Assembly (NCBI GenBank): GCA_027053075.1
Contig: JALUEE010000044.1
Coordinates: forward strand, 1-46,439
Origin: a candidate division WOR-3 bacterium
GTDB taxonomy: Bacteria; Hydrothermota; Hydrothermia; B15-G9; WFZT01
Direction: 5' to 3'
DNA length: 46,439 bases
In this document: positions 34 to 46,439 of the stretch, piece by piece
How positions within the stretch are numbered: position 1 is the first letter of the stretch
Layout of the letters: each line of letters opens with the position of its first letter
Notes under the pieces: generated by a model
Databases searched by the model: none
Seen by the model: the letters and a program-made list of their open reading frames with translations, nothing else
Told to the model about the DNA's origin: nothing
Position numbers and translations under genes: made by a program

Positions 34-67
34 AATTTGAAATTTTTTAAACTTACTTTACTCCCCT

Positions 68-293
68 GAGTCTGTTCGAAAATGTAACACCTGTTTATCC
101 TTTTGTGCGGCGTGAGTGTATTGAGGAGAAGAGCGATGTTTAAAATTAAGTAATTCGAGATTTTCCAGTCTAAAACTCCCCCCTTCCTCCCGAGGGAAAG
201 AAGGAAAATTTACCGATTGCAATTATCGTTGAGATTACGAACTTCAATTGGAAAAGGTGGCATCTAAAATTTAGGATTTCCCGAACAGGTTTC
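68..293 (+). mobile_element. MITE-like non-coding unit with degenerate TIRs and a degenerate hairpin module
   Basis: Left end GAGTCTGTTCGAAAAT (68-83), right end ATTTCCCGAACAGGTTTC (276-293). 161-290 aligns by eye with 31724-31855 (AATTTACCGA; TTGGAAAAGGTGGCA.CTAAAATTTAG.ATTT). Confidence 0.6.
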
Positions 294-300
294 ACGCCCC

Positions 301-329
301 TTGACAATATTTATTCCCGTTGACATTGT
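301..329 (+). promoter_or_regulatory. Candidate sigma70 promoter of polX (leaderless)
   Basis: TTGACA 301-306, 17 nt, weak -10 CATTGT 324-329, ATG 6 nt later, no SD. Second TTGACA at 320-325. Confidence 0.4.
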
Positions 330-12016: not shown

Positions 12017-12555
12017 ACACTATTCACCTCTTCAGGTGTTAATTCCCGAATGTATTTTAATTGCCTGTATCTTTCTGCAAAATCAAGCCCGTAACCCACT
12101 AAAAATTTGTCTGGAACCTGAAAGCCAATGTAATGAACAGGCACTTCGACGATTCTTCTCTCCTTTTTATCAAGAAAAGCACATATTTTCAGGCTTTCTG
12201 GCTTACGTGTGGACAGCAAATCGTAAAGATACCTGAGAGTCAGTCCTGTATCCACAATGTCTTCAACGATTATTACGTCTCTACCTTCAATACTTTCAGA
12301 GAGGTCTTTTAGAATTTTCACCTCTCCACTGGTCTCCGTGGCCTTTCCGTAAGAGGAAACCGCAAGGAAATCCACCTCTGCTTCAACATCAAGCTCCCTT
12401 ATAAGGTCTGCGAGGAAAATAAAAGCTCCCTTCAGAATGCCAACTAAAAGGGGCCTTTTGCCCTGATAATCCCTTGATATCTGAGCTGCCAGCTCCTTTA
12501 CGCGTTTTTTAATCTCCTCTTCAGATATAAAAAATCCAGTCTTTTGATTCGTCAA
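12013..12555 (-). CDS. hpt: Hypoxanthine phosphoribosyltransferase
   Basis: LKGAFIF, VEDIVDTGLTL, VGYGLD; tilS-hpt-ftsH synteny. Likely TTG start at 12555 after GGAGG. Confidence 0.95.
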   Translation of the reverse strand: MTNQKTGFFISEEEIKKRVKELAAQISRDYQGKRPLLVGILKGAFIFLADLIRELDVEAEVDFLAVSSYGKATETSGEVKILKDLSESIEGRDVIIVEDIVDTGLTLRYLYDLLSTRKPESLKICAFLDKKERRIVEVPVHYIGFQVPDKFLVGYGLDFAERYRQLKYIRELTPEEVNSV

Positions 12556-13876
12556 TTTTCCTGACCTCCAGTCTTGTATAAATCTGTGATTTTCCAAAAC
12601 GGTGCTTATAAACTAACGGAACATAGAGAATTTTTCCACCTTGACGAACCACAGGGAAAAGGTCCCTTCGCCAGGATGGAATTTTCTTCTCGATAAATAG
12701 TTCCTTTAATTTTTTCCGACCAACTCCTCTGATGAAAACCTGCTCACCGGGACGTCGTGGTCCTATTTCAAATGTCTCACCATTATGCCAGTAAAAAATC
12801 CACGGATTATCGCTCCCAACTGCTTCTTTCACTGGCTCACCATAAATTTCCACATTCAACGATTCGTACCTGAGCTTGAATGGAGGCTTTACCCTTGTGG
12901 TTTCTATCGTCGGTAACTCCCCCTTAACGATAGCAAGCTCGTCGTATGATTTTATAAGCTTCAGGTTTTCGGGTAACTCCAGCCTCCCCTGCGGTTTATG
13001 AATAACATTTTCCGCTGAAACCACGTGCAAAAAATCAAGCTCCAGAAACAACCTAAAAAACCAGTAAAGCTCGAGCTTATGATACCTTTTAAGTGCCTTT
13101 GTGTCAAGGACTTGGATGTAATTGCTATTTTTTAGATGGAGAATCAATTTCACCGAGTCATTTTCAATCGAACGGCTTTTCCCCTCAAAATAAGGTCGCT
13201 CCTCGGCAAATATTCTTGATGCGTTGAAAATATTTTTCTCAAATGCAGGAAATTTCCGTTTGATTGCAGGGACGATCACGTGCCTTATGTAATTTCTGGT
13301 GTACTCGAGGCTCAAATTTGTAGAATCTATGACGTAGGGAATCCTGTTCTTATCAAGATACTCGATGATCTCGTCCCTCGAAAACGTGATGATAGGCCGG
13401 ATCAGCCTGTCCCGTTTTATAGGAATTCCGGCAATACCTGTGGGGCCTGTGCCGCGAAAGAAATTAAAAAGTATGGTTTCAACTGTGTCTGATAGGGTGT
13501 GGGCAGTTGCAATCTTTGTGCCTCCCCATTTCTCAAGGGTTTCGTATAAAAATTTGTATCTAAGCTCTCTTGCGGCCTCTTCAAGGGTAAGTTTCTTTTC
13601 TTTTGCGTATGAACGAACGTCTCCATGACCTTCAAAAAAAGGCAAATTTCCTGCAAAATCTCTTGAGAATTCAAGGTCACGGTCAGCCTCCACCCCTCTT
13701 AAACCGTGGTGAAAGTGCGCGACAGCAATGTCTATTTTGAATATGCGCTGAGACTTTTTCAGCATGGTGAGTAAAAAAACAGAATCAGGTCCGCCGGAGA
13801 ACGCAACAAGTATTCGATCCCCGGGAGAAATTAGCCTGAACTCTTTTGCAGTCTTGATAAATTTTTCGAGGGGCAT
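12521..13876 (-). CDS. tilS: tRNA(Ile)-lysidine synthetase
   Basis: SGGPDS PP-loop, HHGLRG, EEAARELRY, TAHT..D, D.TN....YTRN..R, TilS C-terminal KKLKELF. Likely ATG at 13876 just after the purA stop. Confidence 0.95.
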   Translation of the reverse strand: MPLEKFIKTAKEFRLISPGDRILVAFSGGPDSVFLLTMLKKSQRIFKIDIAVAHFHHGLRGVEADRDLEFSRDFAGNLPFFEGHGDVRSYAKEKKLTLEEAARELRYKFLYETLEKWGGTKIATAHTLSDTVETILFNFFRGTGPTGIAGIPIKRDRLIRPIITFSRDEIIEYLDKNRIPYVIDSTNLSLEYTRNYIRHVIVPAIKRKFPAFEKNIFNASRIFAEERPYFEGKSRSIENDSVKLILHLKNSNYIQVLDTKALKRYHKLELYWFFRLFLELDFLHVVSAENVIHKPQGRLELPENLKLIKSYDELAIVKGELPTIETTRVKPPFKLRYESLNVEIYGEPVKEAVGSDNPWIFYWHNGETFEIGPRRPGEQVFIRGVGRKKLKELFIEKKIPSWRRDLFPVVRQGGKILYVPLVYKHRFGKSQIYTRLEVRKIDESKDWIFYI

Positions 13877-13877
13877 C

Positions 13878-15137
13878 TCAAGTGTAGCGAATGATTTCGT
13901 GCCTCTCTTTTCCAATGGAAACCATTGAGATGTTTACACCGAGGTAGTCCTGAATGAAGTCCAGGTAAATTCTTGCGTTTTCTGGAAAATCTTCCTTCCT
14001 CTTTGCACCCCTGACCGTTTCCCATCCCCTGAAACTCTGGTAAATCGGCCTGACACCCTCAAGATCATGGGGGAGGTCACGGGTTCTTGACCCATCGGGT
14101 AACTCGTATTCCGTGGCAACTTTGATCTCGTCGAGCCCGTCGAGGACATCGAGCTTGGTGATAACGAGGTCTGTAACCCCATTGAGCATGACAGAATATT
14201 TGAGAAGCACCAGGTCGAGCCATCCGCATCTACGGGGTCTCCCGGTTGTGGCGCCGTATTCTCCACCTTTTTGACGAAGATATTCACCAAGATTGTCGTC
14301 AAGTTCGGTAGGGAACGGCCCTTTGCCCACCCTTGTTGTGTAGGCCTTGGAAATCCCGATGATGGAGTCGATTTTCTTTGGTGATATCCCGAGGCCAATG
14401 GTAGCTCCACCTGAAATTGTATGCGAGGATGTAACGTACGGATATGTTCCAAAGGTGATGTCAAGAAACGTGCCCTGCGCTCCCTCAAGAAGAACACTTT
14501 TACCTTCGCTAATACTTTTGTTCAAAAACAGGGCCGTGTCATCAACAAAATCTTTAATTTTCTCTCTCCACGTGGAGAGGAGCGAGATAATTTCCTCTTT
14601 TGAATAGTGTTTTTCGCCACCAAAGATTTTAAGGATGTGGTTGTTGTAAGTAAGGGATTTCTCAATTGCCCCAACGAGTCTTTTTTCATCAAATAAATCA
14701 TAGACTCTGATGCCGATTCTCCAGTATTTATCGCGGTATGTGGGGCCTATGCCTCTTTTGGTGGTGCCTATGCCACCTTTTTTAGTCTCTTCCAGTGCAT
14801 CTTCGTCTTTGTGATAGGGCATGGTAATCTGGGCCCGGCCATCTATCAAAAGTCTTCCTTTGATAGGCCCGGTTTTTCTCTCCACCAGTTCGATTTCTTT
14901 TAAAAGCGTCTCAATGTCGAGTACCACACCGGCACCGATTATACCCACTTTTTGAGGTCTCAGGATGCCTGAGGGTATGAGGTGAAAGATAAATTCTTCG
15001 TCACCTACGATTACAGTATGTCCAGCGTTTGTGCCTCCCTGAAACCTGGCAATGACATCGTAGTTTTCAGCGAGGAAATCCACGATTTTCCCCTTGCCTT
15101 CATCACCCCATTGCAGACCAACAACAGCAGTAACCAT
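13878..15137 (-). CDS. purA: Adenylosuccinate synthetase
   Basis: QWGDEGKGK, NAGHT, IGTTKRGIGP, EGAQG, TTGRPRRCGW, TKLDVLD. Confidence 0.98.
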   Translation of the reverse strand: MVTAVVGLQWGDEGKGKIVDFLAENYDVIARFQGGTNAGHTVIVGDEEFIFHLIPSGILRPQKVGIIGAGVVLDIETLLKEIELVERKTGPIKGRLLIDGRAQITMPYHKDEDALEETKKGGIGTTKRGIGPTYRDKYWRIGIRVYDLFDEKRLVGAIEKSLTYNNHILKIFGGEKHYSKEEIISLLSTWREKIKDFVDDTALFLNKSISEGKSVLLEGAQGTFLDITFGTYPYVTSSHTISGGATIGLGISPKKIDSIIGISKAYTTRVGKGPFPTELDDNLGEYLRQKGGEYGATTGRPRRCGWLDLVLLKYSVMLNGVTDLVITKLDVLDGLDEIKVATEYELPDGSRTRDLPHDLEGVRPIYQSFRGWETVRGAKRKEDFPENARIYLDFIQDYLGVNISMVSIGKERHEIIRYT

Positions 15138-15172: not shown

Positions 15173-15201
15173 ATTTTAATGTAGCACTCCTATTCTCTCA
15201 A
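15173..15201 (-). promoter_or_regulatory. sigma70 promoter of the purA operon
   Basis: TTGAGA (15201-15196), 17 nt, TAAAAT (15178-15173); GGAGG SD downstream. Confidence 0.6.
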
Positions 15202-15205
15202 CCAA

Positions 15206-15330
15206 GAGTGAGTTAGAAAAATTTCAAGACCTTTAATTTTTAATTAAAAATTTGCCCCCCACCTTATTCCTCCCCCCACGCACAAAGTGCGTGGGGGGAG
15301 GATAGGAGGGGGGAATTTTCGAACGAGATC
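15206..15330. mobile_element. MITE-like unit 1 of a tandem array; central long hairpin
   Basis: GAGTGAGTTAGAAAAAT ... AATTTTCGAACGAGATC; perfect 16-bp stem 15268-15302 with AAA loop; flanked by ACCAA on both sides. Confidence 0.65.
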
Positions 15331-15335
15331 ACCAA

Positions 15336-15692
15336 GAGTGAGTTCAAAATTATCCTTCTTCCTTTTATACACACTAAATGTGTGGTGAAATATGCTGACA
15401 ACTACGGGACGAAATCCCTTCCCCCGCACGAATTTGTTTGCGGGGGAGGAAAGGAGAGGGGCCACATCATTCTTTACTTGAAATCAATCTTCCCCTTTGG
15501 AGTAAAGGTCCCGATAAAGGTTTGCATCTTGATTTTTCAAATTTTCGAACGGAAAGCCCCCTCCTGTCGCCCTCCCCCGCCTGCTGCGCAGGCGGGGGAG
15601 GGCATCGGGTTGTTCATCTTATACAAGTAAGGCGCTAACACGAGCTATTTCGCAAACACAAATCCTGAAGATAGGAATTTTCGGACCCCCTC
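15336..15692. mobile_element. MITE-like unit 2 of a tandem array carrying an inverted hairpin doublet
   Basis: GAGTGAGTTCAAAAT ... AATTTTCGGACCCCCTC; hairpin modules 15411-15467 and 15549-15603; homologous to 31241-31444. Confidence 0.65.
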
Positions 15693-31007: not shown

Positions 31008-31212
31008 TTAGCGGCAACTTTGGAAAAGTTTAAAAGATTCTGCCCCTTAGAGATAACCTGTACGTCACACTACTATTTTTCAGCAGCGATGTAAAATAGT
31101 TTAACTTTTTACATCGGAAAGTTTCGTCCGAATGAAATTTTTAGTGTAAGTCTTGAAAATCCCCGATTTTCCCAACTGTCATTAAGATGACAATTGTGAA
31201 AGTTTGGAAAGC

Positions 31213-31500
31213 GAGCATGTTCGAAAATGTTCAAACACAGAAAACTCCTCTCCCCGCATAAATACTTACGGGGAGAGGATAGAGGAGAGAGGTCACATAT
31301 ATTAAACTTGAATAAATTTAAGAATAGAACTTACCCATCAACTTAGCGGCAATTTGTCTTTATCTTGAATTTCTAATTTTCAAGCGGAATGCCCCCTCCC
31401 AACACCCTCCCCCACTTGCAAAGCAAGTGGGGGAGGGGAACTTGAACCCAGATGTTTTACTAATGTGGATTATAGAAAATGATTTTTCAAACAAGCCTTC
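31213..31500. mobile_element. MITE-like unit 1 of the 31-kb array
   Basis: GAGCATGTTCGAAAAT ... ATTTTTCAAACAAGCCTTC; hairpin modules 31241-31298 and 31384-31444. Confidence 0.7.
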
Positions 31501-31510
31501 TTTGAAAAGT

Positions 31511-31859
31511 GAGCTCGTTCGCAAATGTTTCCCTAATTATTTTTTAGCTACAAGTGAATAAAGTGAGCAGAAAAGTGAGTTTAAACAAGTTTCACCAAGC
31601 ATGATAAGTTGCGAAACTCCCTCCCTTCATCTGGAAGGGAGGGTTGGGGTGGAATGGATAAATTAGTTAGGCAAAAGTATTTATGTTCGGGAATATTCTT
31701 TGACATTCAAAAGAGTGTTAATCTTTTCCCATTCTCCCCTGACCCCTCCTTCCGGCGGAAGGAGGGGAATTTACCGACTGGTCTGTGATCATTTTTAAAT
31801 TGCGTGAATTCATTGGAAAAGGTGGCAACTAAAATTTAGAATTTTTCAAACAAGCCTTC
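31511..31859. mobile_element. MITE-like unit 2 of the 31-kb array
   Basis: GAGCTCGTTCGCAAAT ... ATTTTTCAAACAAGCCTTC; modules 31611-31660 and 31724-31780; TTTGAAAAGT on both flanks. Confidence 0.7.
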
Positions 31860-31868
31860 TTTGAAAAG

Positions 31869-31897
31869 TTGACATATAAGGGGGACTTAAATATAAT
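31869..31897 (+). promoter_or_regulatory. Consensus sigma70 promoter of the mutase gene
   Basis: TTGACA, 17 nt, TATAAT (perfect consensus). Confidence 0.8.
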
Positions 31898-31922
31898 TCA
31901 TTCAAAAAAGGGGGTCTTTGAT

Positions 31923-33596
31923 ATGTATGATGAGCTGAAGAAAAGTCTTGATGAATGGTACAAAAGAAGAAAGGAAAGGTCAAAGGATATTAAGCCCAAA
32001 TATCAAACCATCTCCGGCCTGGAGATTAAAGACCTTTATACCCCCCTGGATATAAAAGATTTTGACTACAAAGAAAAGCTCGGTTTCCCGGGCGAGTACC
32101 CCTATACCCGAGGTCCCTATTACAACATGTACAGGGGTCGCGTCTGGACAATGCGTCAGTTCGCTGGATTCGGCAGAGCAAGTGACACAAACAAGCGCTT
32201 TAAGTATCTCCTTGCTCACGGTGAGACCGGTCTTTCCACGGCATTTGATTTTCCCACACTCTATGGACGTGATTCAGATGACCCTCTTTCCGAAGGTGAG
32301 GTTGGCCGCGTGGGTGTGGCAGTGGATACACTTGCTGATTTTGAAATTCTGTTTGATGGAATTCCCCTTGATAAGGTTTCAACCTCATTCACGATAAATC
32401 CCACTGCTGCCATCATACTTGCCATGTATATCGTAGTTGGCGAAAAGCAGGGGGTCCCATCGGAGAAACTCCGCGGCACTATTCAAAACGATATGTTTAA
32501 GGAGTACCACGCTCAGAACGAGTGGATATTCCCACCGGAGCCTTCGCTTAGAATCATCACTGACATCTTTGCCTTTGCAAAAGACCACGTTCCCAAATTT
32601 AATACAATCTCCATCTCAGGATATCACATCCGTGAGGCAGGCTCGACGGCTATTCAGGAGCTCGCTTTCACCCTTGCAGACGGATTTGCTTATGTTGAGG
32701 CGGGTATTAGGGCCGGACTCAATGTGGATGATTTCGCACCGAGGCTCTCATTCTTCTTTAATGCTCACATGGATTTCTTTGAGGAAATTGCCAAATTCCG
32801 TGCGGCAAGGAGAATCTGGGCGAGAGAGATGAAGAACCGATATAAGGCAAAGAAGCCTGAGAGCTGGAGACTGAGATTCCATACCCAGACTGCAGGCTGC
32901 TCCCTTACACTTCAACAGCCTGAAAACAACATAGTGAGGACCGCTTATGAGGCCCTTTCCGCAGTTTTGGGAGGCACACAGTCCCTCCATACAAATTCCT
33001 TTGACGAAGCGGTCCAGCTCCCTTCGGAAAAGGCCGTGAAAATTGCCCTCAGAACCCAGCAGATAATCGCTGAGGAAACAGGTGTCATCAACACCATAGA
33101 CCCCCTTGCCGGCTCATATTTTGTTGAAGCACTTACAGACAAGATGGAGGAAGAGGCATATAAATACTTTGACAAGATTCTGGAATTTGGTGATGGCTCA
33201 TTCTTAGACGGTGTTCTTAAGGGGATAGAGATAGGATTCTTCAGAAAAGAGATTGCGGATGCGTCTTACGCTTATCAGAGAAGAGTGGAAGAGGGCGAGT
33301 ATTCAGTTGTGGGAATCAACAAATATGCTGATCCTGATGAGAAAATTGAGATTCCGAGATTTTACATTGACCCCAATGTGGAGCCCGAGCAGATAGCATT
33401 CTTAAAGAAAATTAAATCAGAAAGGGACAACACTGCAGTCCAGAACGCGTTGAAGAGGATGGAGGAAGCGGCCAGGACCAATAAAAATCTCATGCCATAC
33501 ATTATAGATGCTGTCCGTGTTTATGCCACAGAGGGTGAGATTGTAAACACATTGAAATCTGTCTTCGGTGCCTACAAAGAGCTGGTAATGATTTAG
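31923..33596 (+). CDS. B12-dependent acyl-CoA mutase large (substrate-binding) subunit, isobutyryl-CoA mutase-like
   Basis: [52 protein letters not shown]; no DXHXXG B12 domain. ATG 31923 after GGGGG SD. Confidence 0.92.
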
Positions 33597-33884: not shown

Positions 33885-34162
33885 AAGAGTACGATATGGT
33901 TTACTGATGTTTTAAGTATCATTTTAGGTGTAGAAATATTAATTGTTGCTGGACGTTATAGCCTCTGGATTCCCATATTGAGACATATAATTCTCATTTT
34001 GGGACTTTCGGGGACCTCAAAAATTAGTCGATGTAATCTTAAAAATGCAGTTTACCCCCATTAGGATTTCTCTTCTCTATATTTATTCCGAGTGGAAGGT
34101 TAATTGCCAGGATTCTGGGTAAATCGTTAAAAGAGGGAATTTTCGAACAGCATCATCTGCTT

Positions 34163-34191: not shown

Positions 34192-34217
34192 AATGTTTGT
34201 TAAAGGAGGTAAGAAAA

Positions 34218-36377
34218 ATGATGAAGTTGATGATAGTGATGTTGCTGGCTTTGGGCCAGGGTGGTAATTTTGGGAAGCATGGAGTAATGAGCAGGTTAGG
34301 TCTGCCAGAAATAGGAGGGCCAAGGGTTGAATCCGGATTTGATTCTCTTAATGTGAGATTTGTTGGTGCATGGCCCTTTGGCCCTTCTTATGCTGTTGCA
34401 ACAAACGGTGATACAGTTTTTCTTGGATCAGGAGGTGGAATATATATCCTTGACGTAACCGATCCCGCTAACCCTCAAAAAATAAGTGAGATAAAAACAC
34501 GCGGAATAGTAAGTGATATCGCTTATTTCAATGGCAAATTATATATTGCAGACGGTAAAGGAGGACTTGAGATATGGGATGTAAGTAATCTCACGTCTCC
34601 TCAAAAATTAAGTTCGTATAATACTCCCAGTTATACGGGAGGAGTGTATGTGGCAGGAAACTATGCTTATGTGACTGATAGAGATTCGGGAATGAGAGTG
34701 ATAGATGTAAGTAATCCTTCTAACCCTCATGAAGTGGGATATTTCGATACTCCTGGTTTGGCAATTGGTGTTTATGTATCAGGGAATTATGCTTATGTAG
34801 CAGATTGGGATTCAGGCCTGAGAGTCATTGATGTAAGTAATCCTTCTAATCCTTTTGAAGTAGGTTACGATACCCTTGGCTCTGCTTTGGATGTTTATGT
34901 GTTGGGGAATTATGCTTATGTAGCAGATTGGGATTCAGGCCTGAGAGTCATTGATGTAAGTAATCCTTCTAATCCTTTTGAAGTAGGTTACGATACCCTT
35001 GGTTTGGCAATTGGTGTTTATGTATCAGGGAATTATGCTTATGTAGCAGATTGGAATTCAGGTCTGAGAATAATAAATGTGAGTAATCCTAACAATCCTT
35101 TTGAAGTTGGTTACTACAACACACTGGCTTCTGCCTATGGAGTGGCTGTGGTTGAAAATTACGCTTATGTAGCTGACAATTGGGGAGGCTTAAGGATAAT
35201 AAATGTAAGTGATCCCTCTAATCCTTATGAATTGGGTTGCTATGAGGTTCCTGGAGACATAGAGGATGTATATGTATCAGGGAATTATGCTTATGTAGCA
35301 GATTGGAATTCAGGTCTGAGAATAATAGATGTGAGTAATCCTAACAATCCTTTTGAAGTTGGTTATTACGATACTCCTGGTCTTGCAAAAGGAGTGTATG
35401 TGGCTGGAAATTATGCTTATGTAGCTGATGATTGGGATGGTCTTTGGGTAATAGATGTAAGTAATCCATCCACCCCCCATGGAGTGGGTTATTATGATAC
35501 CCCGGGTTGGGCAAGGGATGTATATGTTTCGGGGAATTATGCTTATGTGGCTGATTGGGGAGATGGCCTTAGAGTAATAGATGTGAGTAATCCATCCAAT
35601 CCCCATGAAGTAGGTTATTATGATACACCAGGTTATGCTAGAGATGTATATGTGGTAGGGAATTACGCCTATGTGGCTGATGGTGATTCTGGATTGAGAG
35701 TGATTGATGTTAGCATTCCCACTAATCCCCGAGAAGTGGGTTTCGTTGATATTCCTGGTTATGCATATAGTGTCTATGCCGCAGAAAATTATGCCTATGT
35801 GGCAGCAGGTATTAATGGAGTGCGAATAATAAATGCGTATAATCCATCCAATCCCTATGAAGTAGGTTACTATAATGCAGGCTTTGCGAGAGAAGTATAT
35901 GTTGTAGAGAATTATGCGTACGTGGTGGGGGGGACTTACTTAAGAGTAACAGATGTAAGCAATCCATCCAATGCACATGAAGTAGGTTACCATGACACAC
36001 CCGGCTCTGCCAACGGGGTTTACGTGATTGAGAATTATGCCTATGTGGCAAATGGCAATGCTGGTCTGCAAATTTATCAGTTTTATGGTGTTGGAGTGGA
36101 AGAGGATGGATCAGAGCAGCTTGTTAATCCTTTGAGAGTTAAAGTGAATTCAGTGAAAAGGTTGGATATCTCATTTGAGGTTAAGCAAGGGACAAGGGCT
36201 GAGCTTAAACTTTATGACGTTGCAGGGAGAGAAGTCTGGAGAGGGAAGTTTAATTCAGGAAGACACCATGTATCCATGCCATTACCCACCGGGGTGTATA
36301 TCCTGAGGTCAAATGTTATAAACAGGACAAAGGTTTCAATTTATACGAAAAGATTGATAATTTTGGATAACAACTAA
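34218..36377 (+). CDS. Secreted LVIVD-repeat (beta-propeller) protein with T9SS-type C-terminal domain
   Basis: Signal peptide; about 13 repeats of 41-42 aa (V.GNYAYVAD...GLRVIDVSNPSNP.EVG); C-terminal LYDVAGR...LPTGVYIL...KRLII. Confidence 0.9.
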   Translation: MMKLMIVMLLALGQGGNFGKHGVMSRLGLPEIGGPRVESGFDSLNVRFVGAWPFGPSYAVATNGDTVFLGSGGGIYILDVTDPANPQKISEIKTRGIVSDIAYFNGKLYIADGKGGLEIWDVSNLTSPQKLSSYNTPSYTGGVYVAGNYAYVTDRDSGMRVIDVSNPSNPHEVGYFDTPGLAIGVYVSGNYAYVADWDSGLRVIDVSNPSNPFEVGYDTLGSALDVYVLGNYAYVADWDSGLRVIDVSNPSNPFEVGYDTLGLAIGVYVSGNYAYVADWNSGLRIINVSNPNNPFEVGYYNTLASAYGVAVVENYAYVADNWGGLRIINVSDPSNPYELGCYEVPGDIEDVYVSGNYAYVADWNSGLRIIDVSNPNNPFEVGYYDTPGLAKGVYVAGNYAYVADDWDGLWVIDVSNPSTPHGVGYYDTPGWARDVYVSGNYAYVADWGDGLRVIDVSNPSNPHEVGYYDTPGYARDVYVVGNYAYVADGDSGLRVIDVSIPTNPREVGFVDIPGYAYSVYAAENYAYVAAGINGVRIINAYNPSNPYEVGYYNAGFAREVYVVENYAYVVGGTYLRVTDVSNPSNAHEVGYHDTPGSANGVYVIENYAYVANGNAGLQIYQFYGVGVEEDGSEQLVNPLRVKVNSVKRLDISFEVKQGTRAELKLYDVAGREVWRGKFNSGRHHVSMPLPTGVYILRSNVINRTKVSIYTKRLIILDNN

Positions 36378-46312: not shown

Positions 46313-46439
46313 TGTCCCGTCCTGATATATGTTTACAGTACAACTCCCCACGTGGATGATTATAAAACCCTGAAAGGAGGTCACTTATATGCCTGATAAC
46401 AACAAACATTATACCGAAGCCTTCAAACTCAAGGTTATT
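46313..46439 (+). mobile_element. Left end of a probable IS3-family insertion sequence (truncated by window)
   Basis: TG-initiated end TGTCCCGTCCTGATATATGTTTACA, then AAGGAGG SD and an OrfA-like reading frame. Confidence 0.55.
46389..46439 (+). CDS. N-terminus of transposase OrfA-like HTH protein (partial)
   Basis: MPDNNKHYTEAFKLKVI resembles the (K/R).Y(S/T).EFK...V start of IS3 OrfA; strong SD; not in the ORF track. Confidence 0.55.
   Translation, partial: MPDNNKHYTEAFKLKVI

Follow-up and report, generated by a model that had tools for sequence, protein, structure and literature searches.

Two pieces of unrelated, hairpin-bearing cargo stand one behind the other upstream of a consensus promoter in the window (the whole 46,439-nucleotide stretch of DNA that was analysed), and each is followed on its promoter side by the same 29 bp. 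A sequence-only reading of this DNA had taken the arrangement for CRISPR-like growth, in which new cassettes integrate at the promoter-proximal junction and duplicate it. The locus therefore raises the question of what the two units are, what places them beside the promoter and why they share an end.

The repeated 29-mer and the two units

The two copies of the 29-mer (Table 1) are identical with no extension on either side, as had been claimed, and both units are present in unchanged order in the sister genome G004. The 29-mer occurs only at these two places in the 2.44-Mb, 114-contig genome that holds the window (G000), with nothing else within 7 mismatches, and it also matches its own reverse strand as an imperfect palindrome. 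The idea that it is simply the commonest end genome-wide was rejected because it is unique to this locus; the commonest end in the genome is the consensus end of the family described below. An assembly artefact was rejected by G004 and by contigs of run X1, a run that may come from the window's own sample; over each copy and within unique flanks, these contigs show 0 differences. None of them spans the array as a whole, and the contig piece that contains copy 1 is covered at half the depth of the neighbouring pieces.

Three copies of a 10-bp flank surround the units, and the promoter-distal one is decayed to an 8/10 match, as the sequence-only reading had observed. The promoter is a 12/12 match to TTGACA-17-TATAAT, and the last base of the adjoining duplication is the first T of its -35 box. 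Positions 31860-31925 are 100% identical in G004. Both promoter boxes are also kept in G001, G002 and G005; the focal promoter adjoins unrelated cargo at the same target in G001 and an end plus target in G002, and it has no adjoining end in G005. We infer that this promoter is the anchor of the insertion site.

Table 1. Coordinates of the features of the focal locus and of the second stack at the purA promoter.
Positions	Strand	Feature	Support
31203..31212	+	Target-site duplication, promoter-distal copy	8/10 match
31213..31500	.	MITE unit 1 (older, distal): left TIR 31213-31229, right TIR 31482-31500	TIR matrix 23 and 16 bits; G004 orthologue
31246..31279	.	GC-rich hairpin H1	z -5.5; many genomic copies
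31405..31437	.	GC-rich hairpin H2	z -8.2
31482..31510	+	First 29-mer: unit 1 right TIR (atypical) followed by the internal target duplication (31501-31510)	
31511..31859	.	MITE unit 2 (newer, promoter-proximal): left TIR 31511-31527, right TIR 31841-31859	87% to G004 orthologue
31619..31643	.	GC-rich hairpin H3a	z -4.8
31743..31767	.	GC-rich hairpin H3b	z -4.4
31841..31869	+	Second 29-mer: unit 2 right TIR followed by the promoter-proximal target duplication (31860-31869)	
31869..31897	+	Consensus sigma70-type promoter: -35 31869-31874, 17-nt spacer, -10 31892-31897	
31923..33596	+	Methylmalonyl-CoA mutase N-terminal-domain gene, downstream of promoter	TIGR00641, 770 bits
15201..15339	-	Second stack, purA promoter: 121-bp small MITE (15210-15330) with 9-bp duplication copies 15201-15209 and 15331-15339	
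15340..15692	.	Older resident of purA stack, shortened promoter-side TIR	Shared with G004

Each unit carries terminal inverted repeats (TIRs), which the sequence-only reading missed. These are 16-17 bp long at both ends of both units. The family end consensus consists of inverted repeats GAGCCTGTTCGAAAAT, outside which lie 9-10-bp direct repeats that are different at each locus; the target duplication at the focal locus is 10-11 bp. On the strength of these inverted ends and locus-specific direct repeats, the 29-mer is a right TIR, atypical in having one or two extra bases, together with the target duplication.

The units are 288 and 349 bp long and contain no ORF of 80 aa. Their hairpins are as previously described, with four folds at z -4.4 to -8.2. 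Dispersed relatives of the interiors gave 404 BLAST hits, with 22 and 28 long ones including self. Paralogues of unit 1 are 70-82% identical to it, and those of unit 2 are 75-83% identical (nearest 80-83%), several with their own 9-bp duplications. A TIR matrix found 316 ends at at least 14 bits in G000 and the reversed matrix found 53, which means that part of the 316 is noise; about 260 ends of the family lie above background. The elements thus combine TIRs, a target duplication seen against an empty site, short, non-coding, dispersed copies and a partner with shared ends, which are the features of miniature elements. The focal locus is probably a stack of two non-autonomous transposons (MITEs) just upstream of a -35 box, a degree of confidence that applies to the best explanation as a whole.

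Other members of the family were seen in the window and elsewhere in the genome. An element at window positions 67-301, upstream of a PolX gene, has a 9-bp duplication (7/9) directly before TTGACA and a decayed end on its distal side. A small MITE at 7052-8919 of contig C14 in G000 (1.87 kb) appears by eye to be split within its hairpin by an IS110-like element. In large units, C at one TIR position is commoner at the promoter-side end (10/30 vs 2/30, p=0.02). REP-like GC-rich hairpins are associated with DUF559 genes. The sole DUF559 gene of G000 (C26, 16551-17018) is flanked by arrays of GC-rich hairpins of the same type as those in the MITEs, which in the MITEs are passengers inside TIR elements.

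Partner transposase and position of insertions

A split DDE_Tnp_1 gene between family TIRs, at one GTDB pattern locus, led to an intact gene in G004. This gene (contig C168) encodes a 309-aa transposase and has family TIRs, a 9-10-bp duplication and TTGACA alongside, and the orthologous site in G000 is empty. No intact transposase with family ends was found in G000, which is 95% complete, where broken remnants lie on C33 and C75. PF01609 (DDE_Tnp_1) scores above cut-off in the partner homologues, and D112, D188 and E246 are invariant across 9 transposase homologues. The best curated IS model was NF033579 (IS5) at 104 bits, below the cut-off of 140; the partner is filed as IS5-like because of its closeness to ISAae1, to which it is 38% identical, and it is about 27% identical to ISTth7. 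It is likely that an IS5-family transposase of the ISAae1/ISTth7 kind moves the MITEs, a link suggested by their common ends.

Several other candidates were rejected. The four long DDE_Tnp_1 genes of G000 are not bounded by family TIRs, the one IS256-type gene of G000 is broken and by eye has no such ends, and the 1.87-kb element on C14 is a MITE with an IS110-like gene inserted. No Y1/RAYT transposase was found in G000. A metagenome scan for further intact partner copies gave 1 partial locus among 584 candidates, and a PDB search returned nothing relevant. A 528-aa DDE_Tnp_1 transposase ORF also lies inside a hairpin-rich element beside tRNA genes on C111 of G000 (12539-14122).

The position of the elements is fixed relative to promoters. 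TTGAC starts 8-10 nt outside 51 of the 316 TIR ends, compared with 0-4 in 16 control windows, and the distance from end to -35 box peaks at 8-9 nt. A TATAAT match next to TTGAC peaks at the 17-nt spacer (32/51). Among intergenic TTGAC sites, a -10 box at 17 nt accompanies 30/51 (59%) of the occupied and 92/781 (12%) of the unoccupied ones (odds ratio 10.7, p=3e-14), an enrichment that survival bias could inflate. About a quarter of the intergenic TTGAC sites with a -10 box carry an element end (30/122). It is the -35 box that determines where an element inserts, and in most cases the promoter carries no resident. The strict end-plus-promoter pattern occurs in 2 of the 272 phylum genomes; across GTDB it was found at 77 loci, some of which are chance matches, and it recurs in vent-type Desulfobacterota and Aquificota. 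At loci L071, L135 and L109 of other phyla, the same TIR and promoter position are found with different palindromic repeats filling the MITE.

These data also bear on how the target is recognized. If the transposase read TTGAC as sequence, the link to promoters would come through selection. The cut lies inside the -35 hexamer, where bound polymerase might obstruct it, which speaks for recognition by sequence. Against it, occupied sites have tenfold higher odds of a -10 box even when the comparison is confined to intergenic TTGAC sites, and a mirror half-site is absent on the far side of 41 single sites.

Direction of growth and origin of the shared ends

To follow the direction of growth, 69 promoter-proximal ends from part of G004 were compared with G000; 7 of them lacked an orthologue, and 1 at a contig edge was left out. 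The 61 orthologous rows comprised 17 that were the same, 16 G004 insertions (14 distinct events), 3 called G000 insertions (one clean, one fusion and one misalignment) and 25 unresolved by the script. Target duplications at the G004 insertions are 9-10 bp, with at least 7/9 matching in 13 of 14. Manual follow-up identified 7 loci at which lineage-specific units, 8 in all, lie promoter-side of a resident common to both genomes. Together with the purA stack there are 9 such units at 8 loci, all on the promoter side, in a comparison that is anchored on G004 promoter-proximal ends and so favours the detection of promoter-side differences. An extra unit at the distal target copy was found in 0 of the 17 'same' rows, and distal units are more decayed than proximal ones. 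Polar growth on the promoter side, and the existence of variants with added units there, had been predicted by the sequence-only reading and are borne out by these filled and empty sites. Since each insertion spares the promoter and one copy of the target, the polarity would follow from targeting alone.

A 1.36-kb difference in G004 upstream of the focal stack is an AAA_14/DUF4143 ATPase gene (L013, 3390-4718), which corresponds to about window positions 31071-31115. It is absent in G000 and is bounded by a roughly 45-bp imperfect repeat.

The polarity, the decayed distal copy and the weakly palindromic 29-mer would also fit a CRISPR- or integron-like system, whose dedicated integrase would add unrelated cargo at the leader-proximal repeat and duplicate the whole repeat. 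A CRISPR array has at least three near-identical repeats with short spacers, whereas there are just two copies here, with 330 bp between them. No cas1, cas2 or integrase family was present among the 37 window ORFs scanned, and no Rfam match was found in the window. Integron cassette arrays have attC-type sites and lack target duplications, which the units here possess. The cargo is bounded by TIRs and stands singly at many promoters (58/78 elements with both target copies), and a cognate DDE transposase exists. The 9-10-bp duplications and the empty and filled sites largely refute such a system, which is extremely unlikely. CRISPR-like growth logic was thus not upheld, as the units are self-contained TIR elements of an IS5-family transposase. 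Their likeness to CRISPR arrays lies in polar growth beside a promoter with decay of the oldest unit; unlike those arrays, they have no conserved repeat family, short spacers or nearby Cas genes, and the duplicated piece is the locus-specific 9-10-bp target. The resemblance follows from the targeting, and a new system is not needed.

The claim that the end follows the locus rather than the cargo held in part. In 20 arrays, some of which may be false and 17 of which had no distal TIR found, neighbouring promoter-side ends resemble each other more than shuffled pairs do (p=0.003-0.008; without the focal locus the sharing is modest, p=0.02-0.06), in line with the genome-wide comparison of neighbours that had been suggested. 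The control for left-end sharing had 3 usable arrays. Sharing was found in large units (p about 0.001; 0.01-0.02 without the focal locus) and none overall in 9 small-family arrays (p=0.26-0.5), by a split into large and small that was made after the data were seen. G004 has 4 clean additions next to a resident; in 3 of them the new unit clearly has an end of its own, and the fourth is ambiguous. The end therefore follows the locus in a subset of stacks, supported by the 20 arrays and the purA stack, but most new units keep their own end. Integration that duplicates the junction was likewise right as to the promoter-proximal site, but ordinary insertions duplicate 9-10 bp alone.

At the focal locus, 3 positions distinguish the two 29-mer copies of G004, and there are 2 positions at which both of them depart from both copies in G000. 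Because of these differences, the exact 29-bp identity in G000 is probably secondary. Third codon positions differ between G000 and G004 at 77/557 (14%), and the chance that two 29-mers stay identical is about 2% (7% for the TIR part alone). Unphased contigs of run X6 have the same one-base deletion in both 29-mer copies. The homogenised end is the promoter-side one only; the distal target copy and the left TIRs differ. No unstacked allele of the focal locus was found among the joints listed from contigs of 4 runs.

The second stack, at the purA promoter, contains a 121-bp unit that G004 lacks. On the promoter side its end is shortened by 4 nt, as is that of the resident, and this short end occurs in 0/13 of its nearest paralogues. 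Precise loss of the unit in G004 is a possible alternative to its gain in G000. Further long shared junctions are a 24-nt one in G004 and a near-identical pair on C21.

These shared ends allow a different reading of the same elements and the same targeting, in which the end of the resident is gained during integration. One end would be strand-transferred at the promoter-fixed site, and the other would be resolved by branch migration in TIR homology. The 'end plus target' would then be the duplicated unit, close to what the sequence-only reading had proposed. The short end of the 121-bp purA unit and the other long shared junctions support this reading. We know of no such end-acquisition pathway for IS5-family enzymes. 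It is also opposed by the G004 additions that keep their own end and by the lack of overall sharing in the small-family arrays, and by itself it leaves unexplained the changes that are common to both G000 copies but not to both G004 copies. This reading is considered unlikely. Targeted integration of IS911 and IS26 has been modelled by such resolution within homology, according to the available part of PMC7986276.

Parallel change in the quasi-palindrome, coupled with a target read as TTGAC, has also been considered for the identical 29-mers. The 29-mer folds as an 8-bp stem, and the two changes specific to G000 both agree with the opposite strand of this repeat. Four parallel events would be required, the stem has no stability beyond that of shuffled sequences (z -1.3), and the shared 4-nt deletion at purA is left unexplained. 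The combination of sequence-read target and parallel change is quite improbable, more so than acquisition of an end during integration.

Proposed mechanism and related systems

Promoter-targeted stacking of MITEs, with identical 29-mers that likely represent a target duplication and TIR later overwritten by recombination, is the explanation that we favour with good confidence. It builds on established observations: the TIRs, the 9-10-bp duplications, the promoter-fixed position, the G004 insertion sequence with the same ends and the promoter-side location of newer units. In the first step, the transposase would choose its site from the promoter, probably via bound RNA polymerase or its sigma factor. 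Guidance of the cut by RNA polymerase is suggested by analogy with the proposal for TnGBS in the available part of PMC3942029. Each insertion would leave the promoter and one target copy intact, and the next would land between resident and promoter; polarity would thus need no memory device. In the second step, a stacked allele (new end, target, promoter) would recombine with an unstacked allele (resident end, target, promoter). Homology between these alleles would begin at the promoter, take in the target and stop at the inner edge of the TIR. Recombination or gap repair could then replace the end of the new unit by that of the resident; the exchange would be confined to the promoter side and would cover exactly TIR plus target. 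These limits of homology predict the observed length and one-sidedness of the shared end.

It is also conceivable, though doubtful, that in thermophiles an IS5-like clade docks at sigma70 promoters and makes its cut within the -35 box, and that beside a resident a second pathway rebuilds the promoter-side end from that resident. If this were true, arrays would grow by duplicating 'end plus target' and would log insertion order in a CRISPR-like way with a DDE transposase alone.

Among known elements, ISAae1 of Aquifex aeolicus plasmid ece1 has near-identical TIRs and a 9-bp duplication before TTTACA-17-TATACT; it was not named in any paper of the literature searched. ISTth7 of Thermus belongs to the ISH1 subgroup of the IS5 family and has 8-bp repeats (Table 2 in the available part of PMC6352166). 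In ISTth7, TTGAC lies 8 nt from an end at 5 of 9 distinct sites, 2 more have TTG and 2 have neither. The word 'promoter' is absent from the main text of PMC6352166 in its available part. Promoter targeting by the IS5-like ISAae1/ISTth7 clade was not reported in the literature searched, a scope that left aside most subscription papers, ISfinder and supplements. Unlike ISAae1 and ISTth7, the copies described here are non-coding, hairpin-filled and stacked.

Mutator-type elements offer a second comparison. TnGBS, ISLre2 and some ISKra4 elements insert at a fixed distance of 15-17 bp upstream of the sigmaA -35 box, with 8-9-bp duplications and a proposed contact with RNA polymerase (available part of PMC3942029, where 'tandem' occurs in the reference list only). 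The present family differs in its transposase superfamily and in its distance of 8-10 instead of 15-17 bp, with the duplication abutting the -35 box. It likewise falls outside the promoter-targeting p-MULT3/4 elements (ISLre2, ISKra4), since the partner is of DDE_Tnp_1 and not Mutator type and the peak is at 8-9 nt and not 15-17 bp. IS911 and IS26 also yield element-spacer-element junctions through homology-dependent resolution (available part of PMC7986276). Their target is a resident end, whereas here the target is the promoter and most insertions occur without a resident.

Promoter-guided target choice is extended to a second transposase superfamily, with a duplication that abuts the -35 box, unlike in the Mutator cases. 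The family rewrites upstream regulatory DNA yet spares core promoters, and from its stacks the order of insertions relative to one another can be read. In laboratory Thermus, ISTth7 is an active element (available part of PMC6352166), which makes the proposed contact between transposase and RNA polymerase directly testable.

Some further observations were made on the family and on the window. In three elements (L082, 277-1359, and L190 and L194 of G004), the two ends adjoin different promoters with non-matching targets, which suggests adjacent deletions aimed at a neighbouring promoter. A family element end at 34154 lies just upstream of a gene (34197-36377) for a beta-propeller repeat protein with 126-bp repeats and a T9SS-like C-terminal domain. 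The contig end in the window (46331-46439) is the start of an IS3-like element, which also stands at the end of C26 and resembles one on C14.
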